A DNA stretch of 22,583 nucleotides from a virus, in UHGV virus genome UHGV-1292143, one strand, 5' to 3'. Position numbers and translations under genes: made by a program. A model generated the notes under the pieces. It did not search any database, was not told the origin of the DNA, and worked only from the letters and a program-made list of their open reading frames with translations. Shown piece by piece: positions 384 to 22,583 of the stretch. The number at the start of each line of letters is the position of its first letter. Position 1 is the first letter of the stretch.

Positions 384-902
384 TTAAGCGAATTCCCAAA
401 AACGCAAATCAACGATCGCTTCTTTGAATTCCGCGTCGTCTTCAGGTGGCAATGCTGCACGGCGCATCTCCAGCATTTCCATTGCCCAACCATCAAGCGG
501 CACGATACGCCATTGATAAGGTACTCCCTCTACAGGCACCTCAATATCGTCAATGAACGGTTCCACTTCCAGGACCTGGATATCTTCAGCCAGAGCATTC
601 ATATCGCAATCGTAATAATGCTCTTTACCGCAATGTTTACAGGTGTAGGTGAATGTCTCGACCGGTGTTTCACGGGAGCCGGTAAATATCCACCATAACG
701 CGGTAATCCGGTCCTGCGCCGTCCATGTCAGGGGATCATGTTTCGCGGGTTCAGCCAGCAAGGCTTTTAAATACGCCGTTGTCTGTTGTTCTTGTTCCTC
801 CGGTGTTATCGAGTTGAAACGCATCGCATCAGCAATATTTGGCTGACGGAACTGGATCAATTCAGTTGGCCGCGATGGTAGCGGGAAAAGGGGTAAAAGC
901 AT
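384..902 (-). CDS. hypothetical phage morphogenesis protein (172 aa, CKHCGKEHYYDCD cysteine cluster)
   Basis: ORF with GGAG Shine-Dalgarno 6 nt upstream of the ATG at 902; tightly packed behind 917-1528 and 1539-2105 in one minus-strand operon. Function not recognisable from sequence. Confidence 0.6.
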   Translation of the reverse strand: MLLPLFPLPSRPTELIQFRQPNIADAMRFNSITPEEQEQQTTAYLKALLAEPAKHDPLTWTAQDRITALWWIFTGSRETPVETFTYTCKHCGKEHYYDCDMNALAEDIQVLEVEPFIDDIEVPVEGVPYQWRIVPLDGWAMEMLEMRRAALPPEDDAEFKEAIVDLRFWEFA

Positions 903-5218: not shown

Positions 5219-5247
5219 TTGACCTTTTAATCGTTCAGGCTTATAGT
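5219..5247 (+). promoter_or_regulatory. sigma70-type promoter for c4-icd-ant (-35 TTGACC, 17-bp spacer, -10 TATAGT)
   Basis: TTGACC at 5219-5224 and TATAGT at 5242-5247; sits downstream of the operator, as for the constitutive second promoter of P1 immI. Confidence 0.5.
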
Positions 5248-5367
5248 TCCGCCGTCGTAGCAAATTCTGCGACCGGGTTTAGCAGCCTGAATGATTGTGC
5301 GGACAGCCGCAGATATCCGATATTGCGGTATTTTTGTGTCCGTAAAACCGCGTTACGCCCAAATTAT

Positions 5368-5444
5368 GGTGGGACGTGATGGGGAGGCTTCGGCCTGCTG
5401 GTTTCACAATCGCCAGTCTGCTAACCCCGTCACGTCCTGCCACC
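5368..5444 (+). ncRNA. c4: C4-like antisense RNA (77 nt) of the immunity-I region
   Basis: GGTGGGACGTGATGGGG ... CCCCGTCACGTCCTGCCACC closes a long stem; internal hairpins AGGC-UUCG-GCCU and CUGG-UUUCACAAUCG-CCAG. Loop sequence CACAATC is complementary to GATTGTG at 5293-5299 and at 5477-5483, the latter just upstream of the icd GAGG Shine-Dalgarno (5483-5486). Confidence 0.55.
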
Positions 5445-5494
5445 TGTTTAGCAGCGGGTAGCAGGTTGTTAAACCTGATTGTGAGGCCGTAACT

Positions 5495-6824: not shown

Positions 6825-6841
6825 TTTGCTCTAATAAATTT
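6825..6841 (+). promoter_or_regulatory. C1-repressor-type operator (P1 Op53-like) in front of kilA
   Basis: TTTGCTCTAATAAATTT; same extended promoter architecture as at 5164 (TTGCTC ... 17 bp ... TAAGTG). Confidence 0.6.
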
Positions 6842-6910: not shown

Positions 6911-7711
6911 ATGCAACAAACATTCAATGCGGATATGAATATATCAAACCTTCATCAAAATGTCGATCCTTCAACCACTCTTCCCGTTATTTGTGGTGTT
7001 GAAATTACGACCGACCGCGCTGGCCGTTACAACCTTAATGCTCTACACAGAGCGAGCGGACTCGGTGCCCATAAAGCGCCAGCTCAATGGCTAAGAACGC
7101 TGTCAGCTAAACAGCTCATCGAAGAGCTTGAAAAAGAAACTATGCAGAATTGCATAGTTTCGTTCGAAGGCCGTGGCGGCGGCACTTTTGCCCATGAATT
7201 GCTCGCAGTGGAGTACGCTGGTTGGATTTCTCCCGCGTTTCGGCTGAAGGTAAACCAGACATTTATCGACTATCGAGCTGGAAGATTACAACCTGCTATT
7301 CCGCAGAGTCTCCCTGAAGCTCTCCGTTTGGCTGCCGAACTGGCAGAGCAAAAGCAACGGCTGGAGCAAAAAATGCTTATGGATGCACCTAAAGTCGAAT
7401 TCGCCGAACGCGTTGCTACCGCCAGCGGGGTTCTAATCGGCAACTATGCCAAAGTGCTCGGCCTGGGCCAAAACTATCTCTTCACCTGGTTGCGTGATAA
7501 CGGAATTCTGATCGCAACCGGTGAACGCAGGAACGTCCCCAAACAAGAATACATATCCCGTGGATATTTCACCCTTAAAGAAACCGTGATCGATACAAGC
7601 AATGGAAGCAGGATTTCTTTCACGACTCGTATAACCGGCAAAGGTCAGCAGTGGCTGATGAAGCGATTGCTTGATGCTGGTGTGCTGGTACCTGTCGCGG
7701 CAACGCGCTAA
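6911..7711 (+). CDS. kilA: KilA-like protein: KilA-N domain plus KilA-C domain (266 aa)
   Basis: N-terminal VICGVEITTDRAGRYNLNALHRASGLGAHKAPAQWLRT...FAHELLAVEYAGWISPAFRLKV (KilA-N-like); C-terminal domain about 65% identical to the Ant C-terminus; GGAGA Shine-Dalgarno before the ATG. Confidence 0.7.
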   Translation: MQQTFNADMNISNLHQNVDPSTTLPVICGVEITTDRAGRYNLNALHRASGLGAHKAPAQWLRTLSAKQLIEELEKETMQNCIVSFEGRGGGTFAHELLAVEYAGWISPAFRLKVNQTFIDYRAGRLQPAIPQSLPEALRLAAELAEQKQRLEQKMLMDAPKVEFAERVATASGVLIGNYAKVLGLGQNYLFTWLRDNGILIATGERRNVPKQEYISRGYFTLKETVIDTSNGSRISFTTRITGKGQQWLMKRLLDAGVLVPVAATR

Positions 7712-7740: not shown

Positions 7741-8241
7741 ATGCTGGCTAAAGTCACTTTCCTGAGCTGTATAACGATGAGCGATTTTACTTTTTCTGGC
7801 TATGAATTGGCCTGCTTTGTAACACACTCCGGTCTATCCCGTAGCGCCGGGCATATCCTGTCGCAATGTGCAAATCTCGCGGCAACAACCAGTGAATACT
7901 TCATTCACAAGCCTCACCGCCTGATCGCGGCAGAAACTGGTTATAGCCAATCAACCGTCGTTCGTGCATTCCGTGAAGCTGTAAACAAAGGAATCCTGTC
8001 TGTAGAGATTGTTATCGGCGATCACCGTGAACGTCGCGCTAACCTGTACCGGTTTACACCATCCTTTTTGGCCTTCGCACAACAAGCCAAAAATGCGCTG
8101 ACTGAAAGCAAATTAAAGATCTCTTCAGCGGCAACCAAGGTTAAAGCTGTTATCGCTAAGACATTGGCTTTATTTAATTTTATATCCACACCCCATGTCA
8201 AAATGATACCCCCTCCCCCTGTCAGGATGACGTGGCAATAA
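7741..8241 (+). CDS. repL: RepL-like lytic replication protein, N-terminal reading frame (166 aa); appears truncated by a frameshift
   Basis: Immediately follows kilA as in P1; frame ends at 8239-8241 just after a CCCCCTCCCCCT tract. Confidence 0.55.
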   Translation: MLAKVTFLSCITMSDFTFSGYELACFVTHSGLSRSAGHILSQCANLAATTSEYFIHKPHRLIAAETGYSQSTVVRAFREAVNKGILSVEIVIGDHRERRANLYRFTPSFLAFAQQAKNALTESKLKISSAATKVKAVIAKTLALFNFISTPHVKMIPPPPVRMTWQ

Positions 8242-8585
8242 AGAATAAGAAGTCACAAGTTAAAAAAACAAAAAGATCAGTTTCCGGCGGTGCCGGAACG
8301 TCCAGACTCAAAAAATTGACTTCATGGATCGCTGAGGCAAAAGCAAAGGCTGACAATCTGCGGTTATCCCAAAAACGCGCTCAAAAACATGAGTTCAAGC
8401 AGAAAGTAGAGGCGGCTGCGCGGAAATATGCTTACCTGAAGAACAAGCGTTCGCCTGATATTGGCGGGATATCAAACTTCGATAACCTACCGCATTGCAT
8501 GACGGTAAACGAAGCTCTTAATGCGGTTTTAGCCAAAAATAAAGATAACGATCAATGGGGTATACCGGCGGGATTCAGAGGGTGA
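8232..8585 (+). CDS. continuation of repL in a different frame (117 aa), or a separate small basic protein
   Basis: Frame is open from 8178 with no ATG. Restoring 1 nt would fuse it to 7741-8241 to give 281 codons, the length I recall for P1 RepL. Confidence 0.4.
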   Translation: MAIKNKKSQVKKTKRSVSGGAGTSRLKKLTSWIAEAKAKADNLRLSQKRAQKHEFKQKVEAAARKYAYLKNKRSPDIGGISNFDNLPHCMTVNEALNAVLAKNKDNDQWGIPAGFRG

Positions 8586-8799
8586 TAGATTGCTCTAATC
8601 TGGAGTCACCTGGCGTTTTCAGTATGGATTTTCTTTGGCGCGGTCTGGCCATTAGGGATCATGTTTGCTGCAACGTTTCTTCTGATGTGGGTATTCACCC
8701 TTCCAGGTGATTTCTATAGAAAAAAAGCCAGACATTGATACAATCGCTGCGGGTGCTTGAGGCTATCTGCTTCAGGCATTACCCGAAAAGCAGATAGAA

Positions 8800-8871
8800 G
8801 AAAGCCCCAGATAACATTACGCGTCCTGCAAGACGCTTAACATTAATCTGAGGCAATATCTATGCTTAGCA
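8800..8871 (-). ncRNA. possible Sok-like antisense RNA
   Basis: Minus-strand promoter-like TTGACC (8901-8906) - 18 bp - TAATCT (8877-8882); the transcript would be complementary to the mok start region at 8862. Inferred from hok/sok architecture only. Confidence 0.3.
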
Positions 8872-9068
8872 TACGTAGATTAGCCTCTTACCGACCAAAA
8901 GGTCAAGGAGAAGCAGGCTATGAAGCAGCAAAAAGCGATGTTAATCGCTCTGATCGTCATCTGTTTAACCGTCATTGTGACGGCACTGGTAACGAGGAAA
9001 GACCTCTGCGAGGTACGAATCCGAACCGGCCAGACGGAGGTCACTGTCTTCACAGCCTACGAATCTGA
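8862..9068 (+). CDS. mok-like leader ORF overlapping hok in another frame
   Basis: 68-aa ORF starting upstream of hok and overlapping it, as in hok/mok/sok loci. Confidence 0.4.
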   Translation: MLSIRRLASYRPKGQGEAGYEAAKSDVNRSDRHLFNRHCDGTGNEERPLRGTNPNRPDGGHCLHSLRI

Positions 9069-9075
9069 AAGGTAA
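8920..9075 (+). CDS. hok: Hok/Gef-family type I toxin (51 aa)
   Basis: MKQQKAMLIALIVICLTVIVTALVTRKDLCEVRIRTGQTEVTVFTAYESER: N-terminal transmembrane helix plus conserved TRKDLCEV and FTAYE motifs; AAGGAG Shine-Dalgarno 9 nt upstream. Confidence 0.85.
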   Translation: MKQQKAMLIALIVICLTVIVTALVTRKDLCEVRIRTGQTEVTVFTAYESER

Positions 9076-9097: not shown

Positions 9098-10435
9098 CAT
9101 AAGCGCTAACTTAAGGGTTGAACCATCTGAAGAATGCGACGCCTCGGTGCCTCGTTAAGACGATGCCTCGCGTTCTTCAATTGCGTTTTGTAGGCTGTCA
9201 GGGATACTGTCCCACGAATGGCCACCTGTAAGCTCCAGATGACCATTTTTGTTATTCTCCACAACGAGTTAGTTCTTCTTTTCGGATCCGGCACTTCTGG
9301 GGGGGAAATCCAGCGATGGCTGGATTATGTCGTCAATTAAAAATGCGGCGAGTAGATTAGCAAATATCCACGCTTTCGCGAGTTCAGGTTCCTTTGCACG
9401 CAAAGCATCCAGGTGCAGCAAACTTTTGAGCCGCTTAAAAGCCAGTTCAATTTGCCATCGCAGACGGTAACAATCAGCCACTTGCTCTGCTGAATATTCA
9501 TCTTCCGGTAATGATGTTAGCAATAGCACATGGCCCGCTGCTTCCAGCGTTTCCGCCTGAACTACTCGTCCTTTTCGACGATTCTCGCTGAGCAGTCGGG
9601 TTTTACTGATTAATGCTTTTTCGGGAGGAAGTGATACGGCAATGAGACGTGCCGGAAAGGGAGCTCCGGCTTTTTTATTACCTGAATTGCCTATCATTAC
9701 AGTGGTTTCACCGTTCTTACCGCAATCCAGCCCGCGCAGAAAACCCATCATGTCAAAGCGCATTCCTTCTGCAGTTAACCAGCGCAATCCTCGCCAGTGA
9801 ACCCGGACGATATAATCAGCTTCTCCAAAAGCAAGTGAGCGGATACATTCGGGACGCGAACCGAATCCCCGGTCAGCAATGCGTATCTCGTCTGCCGTTT
9901 GCGCAAATCGGTCCAGCCGTTCAGCGTCTCTGCTGTCGGTTAGCTCAAAATCAGTGAACTGACAGGTATGAGGATCATATCCCATATGTAGTCGCCATTC
10001 AGCGCTGCCGCCCCCGGGCGCACTGATTGCTGTTCCATCGACAAGACGCAATCTCTTTCCGCTTGTACAACCCGTAACTGCGGCGCGTACAGCAAGTGTT
10101 TGTGCGGCAAGTATGCCAAACCAGTCGGCGGCATTCCGCAGCCGCTTCAGGAGAGCCACGTCAGATAATGTTGCAACGTCATGGAGCTGAGCCCATGCAG
10201 TGACTTCACGTAATGACATCCCCCCGGGCCGTAAGCCAGCCCCAGACGTAGCAGAGTTGCAGCATCACGAATTTCGCGGCGGCGGGTTAGAGCCCCGGCA
10301 TTACGTGCCGAAGTATCCAGTTCTTCGGGCTTACCAATATGGGCCAGAATTGCTGACCAGTTATCGTGAGAGTAATTCATCGGCACGTTAAATCATATCA
10401 GGCGTAATACCACAACCCTTAAGTTAGCGCTTATG
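9098..10435 (-). mobile_element. IS186-like insertion sequence (IS4 family), 1338 bp, with a 10-bp target duplication
   Basis: Perfect 23-bp terminal inverted repeats CATAAGCGCTAACTTAAGGGTTG; flanking direct repeat GGAGAGATCC (9088-9097 and 10436-10445) within a GGGG-N-CCCC target, typical for IS186. Confidence 0.85.
9269..10386 (-). pseudogene. IS186 transposase, split by a -1 frameshift in a G-run
   Basis: N-terminal 56 aa (MPMNYSHDNW...GPGG) and the 316-aa DDE body (MSLREV...YRLRWQIELAFKRLK) are in different frames. The junction is a C6 run at 10220-10225 (G6 on the coding strand); restoring one G makes a continuous ~372-codon ORF. Confidence 0.7.
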
Positions 10436-12502: not shown

Positions 12503-14008
12503 TTACTTAATAAGCAGCGGTACGCCCTGGATACGACGGGCTACGCCAGTCGGGCAGCAGGCCCAGACTACTTCCCATTTATCGAATTCCGCCTGCGTAA
12601 CTTTCAGCACATACGGTTCTGTACCGTCAGCATCAGGATCACGAGGAGCCACCAGAGCGCCGGAGGCGACAAAGCGATCCAAAAGTTTGGTCATCCCTTT
12701 AGTCAGGCCAGACTCAGTAATGCCGTCCGGGTTATGCTTCATCTGTCGGGCTAACTGGACAAAGAAACGGCTGATTGCGTTCATCAGGGATGGGACGTGC
12801 TGGAAATGCAGATAGTTGTCCTGCGTGCAGCAAGTTAAAGCATCATCGATGATCATCTGGCCCGAAGTACCTACAGATACTTTATTGAGTCGGCCCTTGA
12901 CCATAGCTTCTTCGTCCGGGGTGTCTTCAGGATACAGCGGCTGAAGTGATGCACGAGCAATGACGGCACGTTCTTCACCAGCCGGTGAGTAATGCCAACC
13001 GCCGACATCGGAGTTTTTCTTGACGCCACGAGCTTTCGCCGCATACGCCGCGCCAGACAGACCGAAGACCACGCGGGATTGGGTCCATTTGTCTTTGCAG
13101 GAGAACGGGAAATGATAGACAGCACAGCTTACATAATCGGTACCAAGTAAACCGGTATCTTCAACAGCAGAGATCGCCGCATTGTCATAGCAACCCAGGC
13201 CGAGAACAGCGGTGTGCATGTACGGCGCATTGTTCAGCACTTTCACCGCACGCAGGTAAGCAGCAGTGGAAATGTTCGACTGATCGCCGTTGGTACCGCC
13301 AGTGAACGCCAGCGATTTTTTATTTGTTACTTTCGCCGTCGAAATCAGCTCTTCATTAACAACCGCGCGCAGATATTTAGAACGGGCTTCCAGAGCCGTA
13401 GGCAGATAACACAAGCGGCCCATGTCATCTTTCGCTTCTTCCGCCAAAGACACAGTGTGTGTCTCCAGGGTCGTTACCACACCGAGCGAAGTCGTCTGGG
13501 TCAGTTTTAAGAGGAAGCGTTCATTACCCGCGCTGTCCGCTGTTGCCGTTTCGATGGTTAACTCACGGGTAGGAGAAATACACGGATCACCATCATCAAC
13601 GTAGATAGCAAAGGCTTCGCCGCTATCAAGTTCAATTTCAGAACCGTATGGCAACGCACTGTAAGCCGGTTCGCCTGATTCATCGAACATAATAATCGGG
13701 AACTTCGCATCATCCGGAACAGCACGGACAACATAACCAGACGTTTGCTGAATAGCTTCGTACACATGGCGAATTGGTTCGAACTGTGAGCCGGAGGACG
13801 GCTTCAGCGGTTCGCCGAGAACATCTTCGTAATTGGACTCAGTAACCGCAAGAACAGTAAACGGCTTGCCACGCGCAAATACGCCAATACCAGCCCACAA
13901 GCTGCTATTTAATGCAACACCGGTAGATAACGTCGCATCGGCATTGATCGGGCTAACAGCGACACCGGATGCATTACCTAATGACTGTTGAATTGAATAT
14001 TGAGACAT
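12503..14008 (-). CDS. large late structural protein (501 aa), possibly tail sheath
   Basis: Size and position between the head-precursor gene and tube-like genes; function is inferred from gene order only. Confidence 0.5.
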   Translation of the reverse strand: MSQYSIQQSLGNASGVAVSPINADATLSTGVALNSSLWAGIGVFARGKPFTVLAVTESNYEDVLGEPLKPSSGSQFEPIRHVYEAIQQTSGYVVRAVPDDAKFPIIMFDESGEPAYSALPYGSEIELDSGEAFAIYVDDGDPCISPTRELTIETATADSAGNERFLLKLTQTTSLGVVTTLETHTVSLAEEAKDDMGRLCYLPTALEARSKYLRAVVNEELISTAKVTNKKSLAFTGGTNGDQSNISTAAYLRAVKVLNNAPYMHTAVLGLGCYDNAAISAVEDTGLLGTDYVSCAVYHFPFSCKDKWTQSRVVFGLSGAAYAAKARGVKKNSDVGGWHYSPAGEERAVIARASLQPLYPEDTPDEEAMVKGRLNKVSVGTSGQMIIDDALTCCTQDNYLHFQHVPSLMNAISRFFVQLARQMKHNPDGITESGLTKGMTKLLDRFVASGALVAPRDPDADGTEPYVLKVTQAEFDKWEVVWACCPTGVARRIQGVPLLIK

Positions 14009-16038: not shown

Positions 16039-17004
16039 TTATTCCCCAGCAGACATTTTCCCAATGATTTTTTTTATTGCTTCGTCAATTTCAGTTTGCA
16101 CTTCAGACGGGAGTCTGGAGAACTCGTAGGCGACAACCCGTTTTTTCGGATCGGACTTCTTTCGAGCATATTGGCGACGGTCAGAGAAGTCTCGCAGCTT
16201 CTCAACCACCACAGATTTAACCGGCGCGGGCTTCAGGCTTTTGCTTTCCGCTTTGAAGATAGCCAGTATCTTCGCTTTATCCTCTTTCGCGCCCTCAGTC
16301 TCTGCAATTCGTTCGCGCACCGTATCAACCAGCTCTTCAATAGGCACGCTTTTAGCGTTGGCATCCTCGGAGATCTGGAGCAGTAACTGGTAATCTGGCA
16401 GGGCGAGATCGCTGGCAACAGGGAAGACAGCAATCATCTCATCCGGCACCGCTGCCGCCTGGAACGCGCGCGTAACTTTAGCCTTTGAAATGTTCTCAGC
16501 GCGGGCGATCTCTTCTTTGGTCATGCTCTTACCATACATAACCTCGAAGCGTTTACCCAGTTCGCGCAGGGTGTGTTCGCGGGCTGTCTGGATATCAATG
16601 GCCAGCTGGCGTGCATCCGCCAGGCTGATCTCATCTTTCGTCACCAGAATCTCAAATTTCGTTTCATTGAAGATACACGCAGCGCGGCGACGTGATCCGT
16701 CCAATACCTCAATGCGCTCCCCAACCATACGACCGATAGCCGGGAAGAACTGTTGCAATTTAATGGTGCGGGAAATATCGCTTACCGACTCAGGGGTGAG
16801 CAGAGACTGATCGCGGCCGTTAACTGCCGGGTCAACGAACGTGCGCGACTCAATCTCACCACTCAGCACAACGGTAAGCAAAAATTTAGCCTGGCGGCCA
16901 GATTTTAGGGTAAAGGTTTTGGTGCCTTCACTGCCTTCAAGCATGCGAGCAAACTCGGAGCTATTCTTGCCCAGCACTCGTCCACGGGAAACTATTTTTT
17001 TCAT
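16039..17004 (-). CDS. parB: ParB partition protein, P1/P7 type (321 aa)
   Basis: Core ...FFPAIGRMVGERIEVLDGSRRRAACIF...KAKVTRAFQAAAVPDEMIAVFP... aligns with P1 ParB by eye at roughly 50% identity; ATGA overlap with the parA stop. Confidence 0.85.
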   Translation of the reverse strand: MKKIVSRGRVLGKNSSEFARMLEGSEGTKTFTLKSGRQAKFLLTVVLSGEIESRTFVDPAVNGRDQSLLTPESVSDISRTIKLQQFFPAIGRMVGERIEVLDGSRRRAACIFNETKFEILVTKDEISLADARQLAIDIQTAREHTLRELGKRFEVMYGKSMTKEEIARAENISKAKVTRAFQAAAVPDEMIAVFPVASDLALPDYQLLLQISEDANAKSVPIEELVDTVRERIAETEGAKEDKAKILAIFKAESKSLKPAPVKSVVVEKLRDFSDRRQYARKKSDPKKRVVAYEFSRLPSEVQTEIDEAIKKIIGKMSAGE

Positions 17005-18212
17005 GCCGCCTCACCCCTAACAAACTCAATTCGATCAAACACAGCCTTAGTGAAACGCTCGGCCTCGGTTCGTGCCTTCTTCAGCGCCTCTGCACTGCCT
17101 GGATACGATTGCGGGTTGGCACTGATTACGGTGTCGAAAGACTCGCCGCATCGCTCAAATCCATCCAGACGAGGCAGAGAAGAGTCCAGAATGTTGCTGG
17201 CGTAAACCTCACGCGCAAGGCTGTGTGATGTCTCGTGATCGCGCTTGCCGGTCATCTTCGACATAAAACCAATGCTGGCGCTTAAACGCGGTTCTACGCC
17301 TTCCTCCTCCAGTTGCTCCAGCATTTCTGGCAGACGGGTGAGATATTTCAGTGTTGAGTGGAAGTCAACCTGGGCTGGTGGGGTAGGGGTAAGCAGCAAA
17401 TCGCTGGCCGCCAGACCGTTGAGCAGGAACGGATCCAGGTGTGGACCGGTATCAATAAAGATAAAGTCATAATCATCCGCAACACGATCAATGATATTGC
17501 GTCGAAGGATTTCGTACTGATTTTGTCCGGGAAGATGCTCTTCAACCAGCTCTTTCCATTGGCTGGCAACAAAGCCATCGTCGATAGAGGCTGGAATCAC
17601 GTCTACGCCAGGAACGATGGTCGGACGAATCACCTCTTTGCGTAGCGTCTCCGCGTCCAAGTCGTTCAGCATCGCCTGCGCGGCGGTTTCCAGGATGGAA
17701 CCAATACTGTGAGTATGGTCGAGGAACATTGTGCTGGATGCCTGAGGGTCAAGGTCAATTACCAGAATGCGCAGATCGTGACGCAGTAAATCCTGATGCA
17801 CACGCAGAGCGTGCGCCAACGTGACTGTGGAAACCGTTTTGGATACGCCACCCTTCAGGTTTACGACAAAAATAACGTAAGGCGATTTGTGAATGTCGCG
17901 ATATTTTGGGATCTTACGGTGGGCATAGATATCAATGACGTTCTGGATGGTCAGCGCGTACTGTTCAACGTTACCGACCTGTTTCTTGTTGAACTGGTAC
18001 CCATCATCTTCCATCTCTTTGATGGCCTGCTCCACAATGCGGCGGCTCAGCTTCGGCAACTTTGCCACAGCGTTACGAGTGAACGTCTGATAATACTCGG
18101 TCTGATTGAACTCTTTGCGCTGATCTTCAATATCCTGACTCATGGCCTTAAGTAATGCGCTTGCACGAAGAGCTATGGTGCCGACACCGCCGTAATCGCG
18201 TTTCATCATCAT
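17001..18212 (-). CDS. parA: ParA partition ATPase, type Ia with N-terminal DNA-binding extension (about 400 aa)
   Basis: Deviant Walker A NLKGGVSKTVST, plus ...RILVIDLDPQ..., ...GFMSK..., LPRLDGFERCGESFDTVISANP; three consecutive ATGs at 18204-18212 behind an AAGGAG Shine-Dalgarno. Confidence 0.9.
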   Translation of the reverse strand: MMMKRDYGGVGTIALRASALLKAMSQDIEDQRKEFNQTEYYQTFTRNAVAKLPKLSRRIVEQAIKEMEDDGYQFNKKQVGNVEQYALTIQNVIDIYAHRKIPKYRDIHKSPYVIFVVNLKGGVSKTVSTVTLAHALRVHQDLLRHDLRILVIDLDPQASSTMFLDHTHSIGSILETAAQAMLNDLDAETLRKEVIRPTIVPGVDVIPASIDDGFVASQWKELVEEHLPGQNQYEILRRNIIDRVADDYDFIFIDTGPHLDPFLLNGLAASDLLLTPTPPAQVDFHSTLKYLTRLPEMLEQLEEEGVEPRLSASIGFMSKMTGKRDHETSHSLAREVYASNILDSSLPRLDGFERCGESFDTVISANPQSYPGSAEALKKARTEAERFTKAVFDRIEFVRGEAA

Positions 18213-18256
18213 CTCCTTATCATTTCGTATGAGTGAATTGTACGTTTGATTCTGCT

Positions 18257-18297
18257 ACGTGCAACTTATTTTGATTCGTGCGTAAATTATTGCACGT
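18257..18297 (-). promoter_or_regulatory. candidate par operator/promoter region (inverted repeat ACGTGCAA ... TTGCACGT)
   Basis: Inverted repeat directly upstream of parA; ParA-type autorepressor operators are imperfect inverted repeats at this position. Confidence 0.4.
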
Positions 18298-18299
18298 AA

Positions 18300-18600
18300 A
18301 GAAATGGCGATGAGGCTATTAGATGTGTGCTGGAGGGATGATGCAGGACCAGAATGTGCGATAGAGGGAAGTCGCATTGAATTATGTGTTGTGGAGGGAT
18401 CGCTGGTATCAAATATGTGCGCTGAAGGGAAAGATAGAAGATTAGATGTGCGCTGGAGGGAAACTTGGATGGTTAGATGTGTGCTGGAGGGAATGTCTGG
18501 GCAAACTGCGTGGCGCAACCCTCCAGCGCACACCAAAAACAGGAAAATGGGCAGGCATTCCCGGCAGCGCACATTTTTCAAATGCAGCTGCCCTCCAGCA
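18300..18600. repeat. incA-like array of ~19-bp RepA iterons (about 9 copies, both orientations)
   Basis: Repeated GATGTGTGCTGGAGGGAAA-like units with the last copies inverted; located downstream of repA. Confidence 0.8.
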
Positions 18601-18605
18601 CACAC

Positions 18606-19466
18606 TTATTCGGGAAGTTTCAGCTTTGGATTGCGAGAATGGACGATTACAAAACTTTCCCGGCCTTTCTTCTCAATTGAACAGTCGAGATAGCCGATTG
18701 TTTTAAGCTGTTCTATCGCTTTCTTAATGATACGGTTTTGCTCGCCAACAGCTGACTGCAAAGCCAGGCGCTCACGGATTCGCGCGAACGATAGCGGCAA
18801 CGGGTTCTGCGGAAGGCTTTCGATGAAAGTGTAAATGGCTTGTGCAGCTTCTTTCTTCGGAAGGGCACGCAAGGCGTGGTGTTGCAACAGAACGCGATAA
18901 TCAAGCTGGAACAGCTCCCAGAGCTTCGAATCGGCCTCCAGCTCTATCAGATCAAGGTCAGCATCAAAACGCCCGACCTTCAGCAGACCAGTCTGATAGC
19001 CGCCTTTAGCATCTTTTCCGCGCTTAAAAGCGATACCCTTGTTACGCAAGCGTCCAAGTGATTCATGAATGGTTAAACGCAGTTTCGCATCCAGACGTTT
19101 TGAGGGGAAACCACAGGCTTTAGCGAACTCCTGAAACGATAACTGGATGGTGTTTGAAGACAAGCCGTATTTGCTGAACGCGTAGATGACACCGATCCAC
19201 GTTTTGAAATCAGTATCCATATCGAGTCGAGGACCGGTGATTTTAATATCATCGTAACCCTCGGCTTTAGCTATCTCCAGCTGGGAAAACGCTTTGGTGG
19301 CATCAATCTCTTTACTTTCTCCTTTGCTCTTTGATGGCTTCGGAACGAATACCCCCAAGCGCATCAACGCTACAGGCTGCACAGTGTTGTTTGAATTAAC
19401 TGTTAGTTCTTTTGCCTTACTTTCAATGTCTGCGTAAAGAATATCGGAGATAAATGATTGATTCAT
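18606..19466 (-). CDS. repA: RepA plasmid-prophage replication initiator (286 aa)
   Basis: Flanked by iteron arrays on both sides; protein matches my recollection of P1 RepA very closely (not verified). Confidence 0.9.
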   Translation of the reverse strand: MNQSFISDILYADIESKAKELTVNSNNTVQPVALMRLGVFVPKPSKSKGESKEIDATKAFSQLEIAKAEGYDDIKITGPRLDMDTDFKTWIGVIYAFSKYGLSSNTIQLSFQEFAKACGFPSKRLDAKLRLTIHESLGRLRNKGIAFKRGKDAKGGYQTGLLKVGRFDADLDLIELEADSKLWELFQLDYRVLLQHHALRALPKKEAAQAIYTFIESLPQNPLPLSFARIRERLALQSAVGEQNRIIKKAIEQLKTIGYLDCSIEKKGRESFVIVHSRNPKLKLPE

Positions 19467-22478: not shown

Positions 22479-22583
22479 GGTGATGCTGCCAACTTACTGA
22501 TTTAGTGTATGATGGTGTTTTTGAGGTGCTCCAGTGGCTTCTGTTTCTATCAGCTGTCCCTCCTGTTCAGCTACTGACGGGGT
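22479..22583 (+). mobile_element. IS1 (canonical sequence), left end only; element continues beyond the window
   Basis: GGTGATGCTGCCAACTTACTGATTTAGTGTATGATGGTG... matches the IS1 left terminus exactly as I recall it; insA GTG start at 22534. Confidence 0.9.

Follow-up and report, generated by a model that had tools for sequence, protein, structure and literature searches.

The window analyzed here, a 22,583-nt stretch of DNA (UHGV virus genome UHGV-1292143), is an IS1-to-IS1 block of a P1-derived IncY plasmid, and contains the c4 antisense RNA, icd, ant, kilA, a repL pseudogene, hok/sok, IS421, five ORFs of the P1 morphogenesis region, parB, parA, and repA. Both of its ends (1-258 and ~22534-22583) are IS1 fragments, and a window bounded in this way looks like a short-read contig that was broken at repeats. 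The features that bear on repL are as follows:

6825-6841, plus strand: C1 operator Op53/OrepL, overlapping promoter P53/PkilA; a 17-mer that matches P1 exactly.
6911-7711, plus strand: kilA, first gene of the kilA-repL operon; intact, 266 aa.
7741-8585, plus strand: repL pseudogene; 845 nt, against 846 nt (281 aa) in intact alleles.
7741-8241, plus strand: upstream repL frame; 166 aa, made up of RepL residues 1-151 and 15 out-of-frame residues (HVKMIPPPPVRMTWQ); TAA at 8239-8241.
8182-8190, plus strand: DnaA box 1 of oriL; ATATCCACA in the window and TTATCCACA in P1, one mismatch.
8191-8194, plus strand: the lesion, a run of four Cs where P1 and ~500 related plasmids have five (alignment column 451; allele counts).
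8209-8220, plus strand: C5-T-C5-T tract; wild-type, identical in the window, P1, and CP056627.
8232-8585, plus strand: downstream repL frame; 117 codons, corresponding to RepL residues 165-281; GTG at 8232 is the sole possible start.
8236-8278, plus strand: AT2, a 43-bp A/T-rich segment that matches P1 exactly, with the 13-mer GATCTTTTTGTTT on the minus strand.
8751-8925: sok (Rfam sok, 114 bits).
8920-9075: hokD.
16039-19466: IncY maintenance module repA, parA, and parB (annotated RepA, AAA ATPase, and ParB).

The left IS1 truncates the P1 "morphogenetic protein" gene (ORF 384-902, minus strand). The immI elements of P1 are found at 5241-5447, upstream of icd-ant, and consist of the C4 antisense RNA (RF01695) and its a1/b1 targets (RF03163). 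Homology to P1 stops inside the C1 operator Orlf (~8600), just past the repL stop, and between 8586 and 9075 the P1 genes rlfA, rlfB, and pmgF are replaced by a membrane-protein gene fragment (8622-8738) and the hok/sok type I toxin-antitoxin. Further downstream is IS421 (~9099-10434), whose minus-strand transposase gene (9269-10381) has a 1-nt homopolymer deletion (CCCCCC-GGG) at ~10225 relative to the intact copy in pNDM-M121; this transposase is marked "frameshifted" by RefSeq in pE2, pfosA3, and pTetA_020022. An intact ORF of 501 aa on the minus strand (12503-14008) is a probable homolog of P1 gene 22, which encodes the tail sheath. The corresponding gene of pXD35003 is at 5459-6964 of L019, and that of pE2 is 6 nt shorter.

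In P1, repL (NC_005856, 50726-51571; 846 nt, 281 aa) is annotated as encoding the initiator at oriL, with the origin located within the gene itself. The P1 kilA-repL region is ~98% identical to that of the window, and matches to it were found in 21 phage and 629 plasmid records. Across its 845 nt, the window repL is ~98% identical to P1 repL at the nucleotide level with a single gap of 1 nt, and the first-pass annotation was correct in taking the gene for P1 repL. It had also described a RepL-like ORF (7741-8241) that stops just after CCCCCTCCCCCT (8209-8220) and a second frame (8232-8585) that continues without its own ATG; both descriptions were confirmed, as the upstream ORF ends at the listed TAA and the downstream one begins at a GTG, preceded at a distance of 4 nt by an AGGA. 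Adding one C computationally yields an 846-nt ORF of 281 codons, in agreement with the earlier proposal that a single restored nucleotide would give the length of P1 RepL, and the restored translation falls in the cluster of P1 RepL. Both repL fragments have precomputed hits to PF26868 (Phage_P1_RepL). Local scans of Pfam and NCBIfam did not return PF26868, and gave only sub-threshold hits to MarR_2 and HTH_36. Some annotation runs name the downstream 8232-8585 frame as a separate 117-aa "RepL."

The position of the frameshift is slightly different from that first proposed. It had been assigned to the C5-T-C5-T tract within an interval spanning 8178-8241; the missing C does fall inside that interval, but 15 nt upstream of the tract, which is unchanged. 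Alignment of the window to P1, to CP056627 (the nearest intact allele), and to the identical plasmid CP047005 showed exactly one indel. It is in the C-run at 8191-8194, which comes directly after ...TATCCACA and reads ACACCCCATG in the window and ACACCCCCATG in P1. The 1-nt deletion falls in codon 152, and the frame is lost after codon 151; the C5-T-C5-T tract, which encodes T-P-S-P in the native frame, consequently reads PPPP in the shifted one. A frameshift in the C5-T-C5-T tract of this window is ruled out by the alignment. The mechanism first proposed does exist, but in other elements. Chance is not an issue, as the allele is a single defined difference from ~500 close relatives.

The segment that carries the deletion also contains an imperfect direct repeat (8191-8232), CCCC(C)ATGTCAAAATGA / CCCCCTGTCAGGATGA, which encodes PPCQND / SPCQDD, and the deletion is in copy 1. 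This repeat is kept at the DNA level even in RepL homologs that are ~48% identical as proteins (L014-L016). It could be an iteron-like RepL site beside AT2, or merely a conserved peptide repeat. A repeat search of 8100-8400 gave nothing significant beyond weak two-copy matches.

Huan et al. (2023) mapped the target of RepL to AT2, an A/T-rich segment with a 13-mer, and an 88-bp fragment (T5) was sufficient in trans as a RepL target, while mutations in the IHF/AT1 site and in the DnaA boxes had little effect (PMC9948254). In the supplement of that study, AT1 is located at nt 415-438, DnaA box 1 at nt 441-450 (Supplementary Figure 1), and AT2 at nt ~495-540, and the 88-bp minimal RepL target has the C5-T-C5-T tract at its 5' end, where the T5 primer begins. 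In the window, DnaA box 1 is immediately 5' of the shortened C-run, and the sequence from 8209 to ~8296 (the 88-bp minimal target, including AT2) is identical to P1. The deletion falls between DnaA box 1 and the minimal target, leaving the mapped cis-acting origin unchanged, and the premature TAA sits within AT2. Since the oriL core is intact and downstream of the deletion, the origin could still respond to RepL supplied in trans. Upstream of kilA, the -35 and -10 boxes of P53 are conserved, and the operon should remain repressible by C1, because Op53 matches P1 exactly.

RepL belongs to a small family (PF26868), for which 13 clusters were found. Relatives that are 46-50% identical are single ORFs of 261-283 aa, and the ORF was uninterrupted in 10 of 10 full-length representatives. 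A genuinely short RepL followed by a separate downstream gene, which the first-pass annotation had considered as another way to account for the two frames, was seen in no homolog, near or distant (~500 close relatives and the family alignment). In the alignment of the family, the N-terminal region is highly conserved, and an ARKYAYL stretch is conserved in the C-terminal half. Between them is a double motif, PPCQND..PSPCQ(D/N)D (residues 151-164), the columns of which are at least 90% conserved in proteins with identities as low as 47%. The AlphaFold model of RepL (mean pLDDT 62) has a confident winged-helix (wHTH) domain at residues 13-148, a disordered region at 149-190, and a long helix at 187-236; a Foldseek search with this model gave weak matches to MarR-type winged helices only. 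According to this model, the 166-aa product retains the whole predicted wHTH domain. It lacks the PPCQND/PSPCQDD motif and ARKYAYL, and the 117-codon frame also lacks the Cys motif. RepL is needed for replication from oriL (PMC9948254; also GenBank notes). Given the conservation of the lost motifs and the loss of the C-terminal part of the protein, RepL-driven initiation at oriL is most likely abolished. No truncation series of the RepL protein is known to have been published, and PMC9948254 was found to contain none. CRISPRi knock-down of P1 repL produced no plating defect (EOP 0.71), a result that its authors treat as a false negative, that is, a missed essential gene; it leaves the essentiality of RepL for plaque formation not beyond question.

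The C4 allele is present in many records. An 87-nt probe over the site matched 12 of 513 PLSDB plasmids exactly, and the other ~500 differ from it by a one-base gap. The region was found in 514 of 5,426 complete E. coli genomes, and 12 records have the exact C4 sequence. In NCBI, Logan, and ENA data, a 154-aa form of the truncated protein (internal ATG start) was found on at least 171 contigs, the exact 166-aa product on 16 contigs, and the exact 117-aa product on 95 contigs; the truncated protein is indexed there in 365 blocks, many of which are draft contigs. The sources of the allele include chicken, duck, swine, human blood, meat, and salad, as well as a food isolate of Cronobacter sakazakii. 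Sequences that are identical or nearly identical to the window, including the C4 allele, are found in pE2 (CP086663), pCrono684-2 (CP080596), pTetA_020022 (CP032890), pfosA3 (CP047005), pNDM-M121 (CP083586), and pXD35003 (CP089136). For the identical sequence in pTetA_020022, pfosA3, pE2, and pXD35003, RefSeq gives the label "MarR family transcriptional regulator, frameshifted." Public annotation thus already flags this repL as a pseudogene, and it is in this sense an ordinary and known one; literature searches found no paper that mentions the repL frameshift.

Two backbones carry the allele: one of the window type, with IS421 after hok, and one of the pXD35003 type, without IS421. They are ~1% divergent in kilA and the 5' part of repL, and identical in the 3' part of repL. 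As the frameshift is common to both branches, it predates their split, and because pXD35003 has the repL frameshift without having IS421, the repL lesion is older than the IS421 insertion. pNDM-M121 (L004) has 7 SNPs relative to the window within 95 bp of kilA (7284-7378), the rest of the 21 kb being nearly identical, and this cluster looks like a short recombination patch. There is also an IS903B insertion in pNDM-M121 that is absent from the window.

The plasmids that carry the allele have lost much else of the phage. Over the region read, pE2 (RefSeq) is 100% identical to the window. Its lysozyme gene is frameshifted and truncated, its helicase and Ref genes are truncated, its recombinase gene is frameshifted, and IS1 interrupts a morphogenetic gene; its full RefSeq annotation is devoid of genes for a terminase, a tape-measure protein, or tail fibres. 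It also has ~50 kb of cargo, including tet(A), qnrS1, dfrA14, TEM-135, floR, and a DMSO reductase cluster. According to RefSeq, pXD35003 retains a terminase gene, the late promoter-activating protein, and the maturation control protein, and is otherwise gutted, with an internal stop in its probable homolog of the tail-sheath gene (P1 gene 22). Plasmids identical over the region are without most virion genes, and by this comparison the carrier of the window is not an otherwise functional prophage. In the literature, pCrono684-2, pE2, pNDM-M121, and pTetA_020022 are presented as phage-like plasmids, each having an intact RCS47-like prophage and a complete set of proteins for building the phage (PMC9603571). 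This "intact prophage" for pCrono684-2 and its relatives is not borne out by RefSeq, which annotates many phage pseudogenes in pE2.

These data suggest, with a probability of roughly 0.9, that the window carries a genuine, vertically inherited 1-bp deletion, and that repL is a pseudogene in a decaying lineage of P1-derived plasmids. In this reading, the inherited C5-to-C4 change at 8191-8194 would have turned the gene for the initiator of the P1 lytic replicon into a pseudogene. The C4 allele would then mark a lineage of IncY plasmids that derive from P1, confer multidrug resistance, and reside in E. coli and Cronobacter; the records examined are from China. The lineage would be maintained by RepA/ParAB, phd-doc, and hok-sok, most of the virion, lysis, and packaging genes having been lost or broken already. 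The repL frameshift would be one of the steps by which a phage-plasmid decayed to a plain plasmid, and may have been neutral or mildly favored.

Other repL alleles, on other haplotypes, have independent -1 frameshifts within ~90 bp of the same segment. The second C5 of the C5-T-C5-T tract is less one C in P0058 (28 contigs) and P0071 (5 contigs), and the first C5 is less one C in P0061 (2 contigs); a C5-T-C4 allele is present in 4 complete E. coli records. An A4 run is less one A in P0059 (7 contigs), T6 is reduced to T5 in P0017 and P0048, and A5 is reduced to A4 in P0069. CP184147 is among the other elements in which repL has an independent -1 frameshift. A C-terminal "RepL" fragment of 89 aa, P0018, was found on 210 contigs. 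An A5-to-A6 allele (P0047) was considered as a common second lineage and rejected, as it occurs in 0 PLSDB plasmids and its exact protein is on one contig.

From these alleles, it may be proposed that the truncation was selected, either because a wHTH-only product binds oriL and blocks lytic replication of the element itself or of superinfecting P1-like phages, or because the loss of toxic RepL-driven runaway replication makes the resistance plasmid more stable; this is unlikely. At least five other independent -1 alleles, in other elements or haplotypes, fall within ~90 bp; in all of them the wHTH is retained and the frame runs to the same TAA. A passage of PMC9948254 describes high RepL activity as possibly cytotoxic, and kilA, c1, and Op53 are still intact. 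However, the segment is dense in homopolymers (T6 in P1, followed by C5, C5, C5, A7, and A5), and mutational bias alone could suffice. Every -1 shift in the segment must reach the same stop, and in the carriers examined the decay extends to many unrelated genes. The more specific form of the proposal, in which the ~90-bp oriL segment is a recurrent target of -1 shifts (at least 6 alleles) and a wHTH-only RepL (residues 1 to ~150/164) is selected as a toxicity shut-off or as an oriL-binding inhibitor of superinfecting P1-like phages, is likewise unlikely; the clustering of frameshifts may reflect homopolymer density alone.

It is very unlikely that RepL activity has been kept, whether by a split protein, consisting of the wHTH (1-151) and residues 165-281 restarted at the GTG at 8232, or by ribosomal -1 or transcriptional slippage on the C-rich stretch that restores a full-length product. 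The break is at the end of the confident wHTH, in a segment that AlphaFold predicts to be disordered, and the AGGA before the GTG, together with the overlap of the GTG frame with the stop of the first ORF, would make translational coupling possible. Around and after the shift, the codons are ACA CCC CAT GTC AAA ATG ATA CCC CCT CCC CCT GTC, and the CCC-CCU-CCC-CCU stretch could permit rare spontaneous -1 slippage. In the P site, tRNA-Pro paired with CCU could shift to the -1 CCC, and ribosomes are stalled by PPPP stretches. Against these mechanisms, the linker motif that is conserved most strongly (residues 152-164) would be missing from both pieces of a split protein or altered in a slipped one, the two-ORF layout is found in none of the ~500 close relatives or the distant homologs, efficient transcriptional slippage needs C runs longer than 4-5, and the host plasmids show general gene decay. 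Programmed ribosomal recoding was rejected, as the two-frame layout is not conserved and the zero frame has no in-phase canonical X XXY YYZ heptamer in the stretch from the shift to the stop. Phase variation was also rejected, since it would need a run longer than 4-5 bases and the allele shows stable linkage to a haplotype.

The first-pass annotation had offered two alternatives, inactivation of lytic replication or a homopolymer error in sequencing; inactivation is supported, and the error is rejected because the allele recurs on many records. That the true molecule has C5 and an intact repL, the C4 run being an error of sequencing or assembly, is extremely improbable, although a 1-nt homopolymer deletion is the classic type of error, a second such difference is present in the IS421 transposase gene of the window, and some frameshifted repL variants in the databases look error-prone (P0076 has several frameshifts, and P0047 is a singleton). 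The same allele is found in at least 12 finished plasmids, which differ in laboratory, host, and year, in addition to the contigs counted above, and it is linked to a haplotype. Illumina sequencing is not prone to errors in a run as short as 4-5 bases, and a systematic error specific to this context is excluded because ~500 relatives with the same flanks read C5.

The inheritance of a pseudogenized repL has consequences for how these plasmids are described. repL is widely used as a PCR and in-silico marker of "P1-like phage-plasmids," and in this lineage the gene appears to be dead and the phage genome gutted. The lineage carries tet(A), qnrS1, floR, TEM, oqxAB, and rmtB, as well as NDM via a cointegrate, and transduction of the element itself as a phage should not be credited with the spread of these resistance genes. 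With its intact oriL, the plasmid could still be amplified by RepL made by a P1-like phage in the same cell. The recurrent frameshifts in the same short segment of other elements offer a minor clue to the way in which phage-plasmids turn into plasmids by decay.

Compared with P1, the window has the same kilA-repL replicon: an operon with kilA upstream, an exact P53/Op53, the AT2/13-mer core, and the C5-T-C5-T tract. In contrast to P1, the window is without one C at 8191-8194, its ORF is split into 166 aa and 117 codons, and DnaA box 1 has a mismatch. Downstream of repL, P1 has rlfA and rlfB, whereas the window has hok/sok and IS421. Another P1-derived IncY replicon that was kept as a plasmid, with its lytic-replication and virion functions lost, is pJIE250-3 (PMC6906374). 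IS-mediated gain of cargo is a feature common to pJIE250-3 and to the phage-plasmid-to-plasmid transitions described elsewhere (PMC10879196), and is shared by the lineage of the window. In pJIE250-3 the whole lytic module has been deleted (Venturini et al., 2019), while the window retains a frameshifted repL together with an intact oriL.
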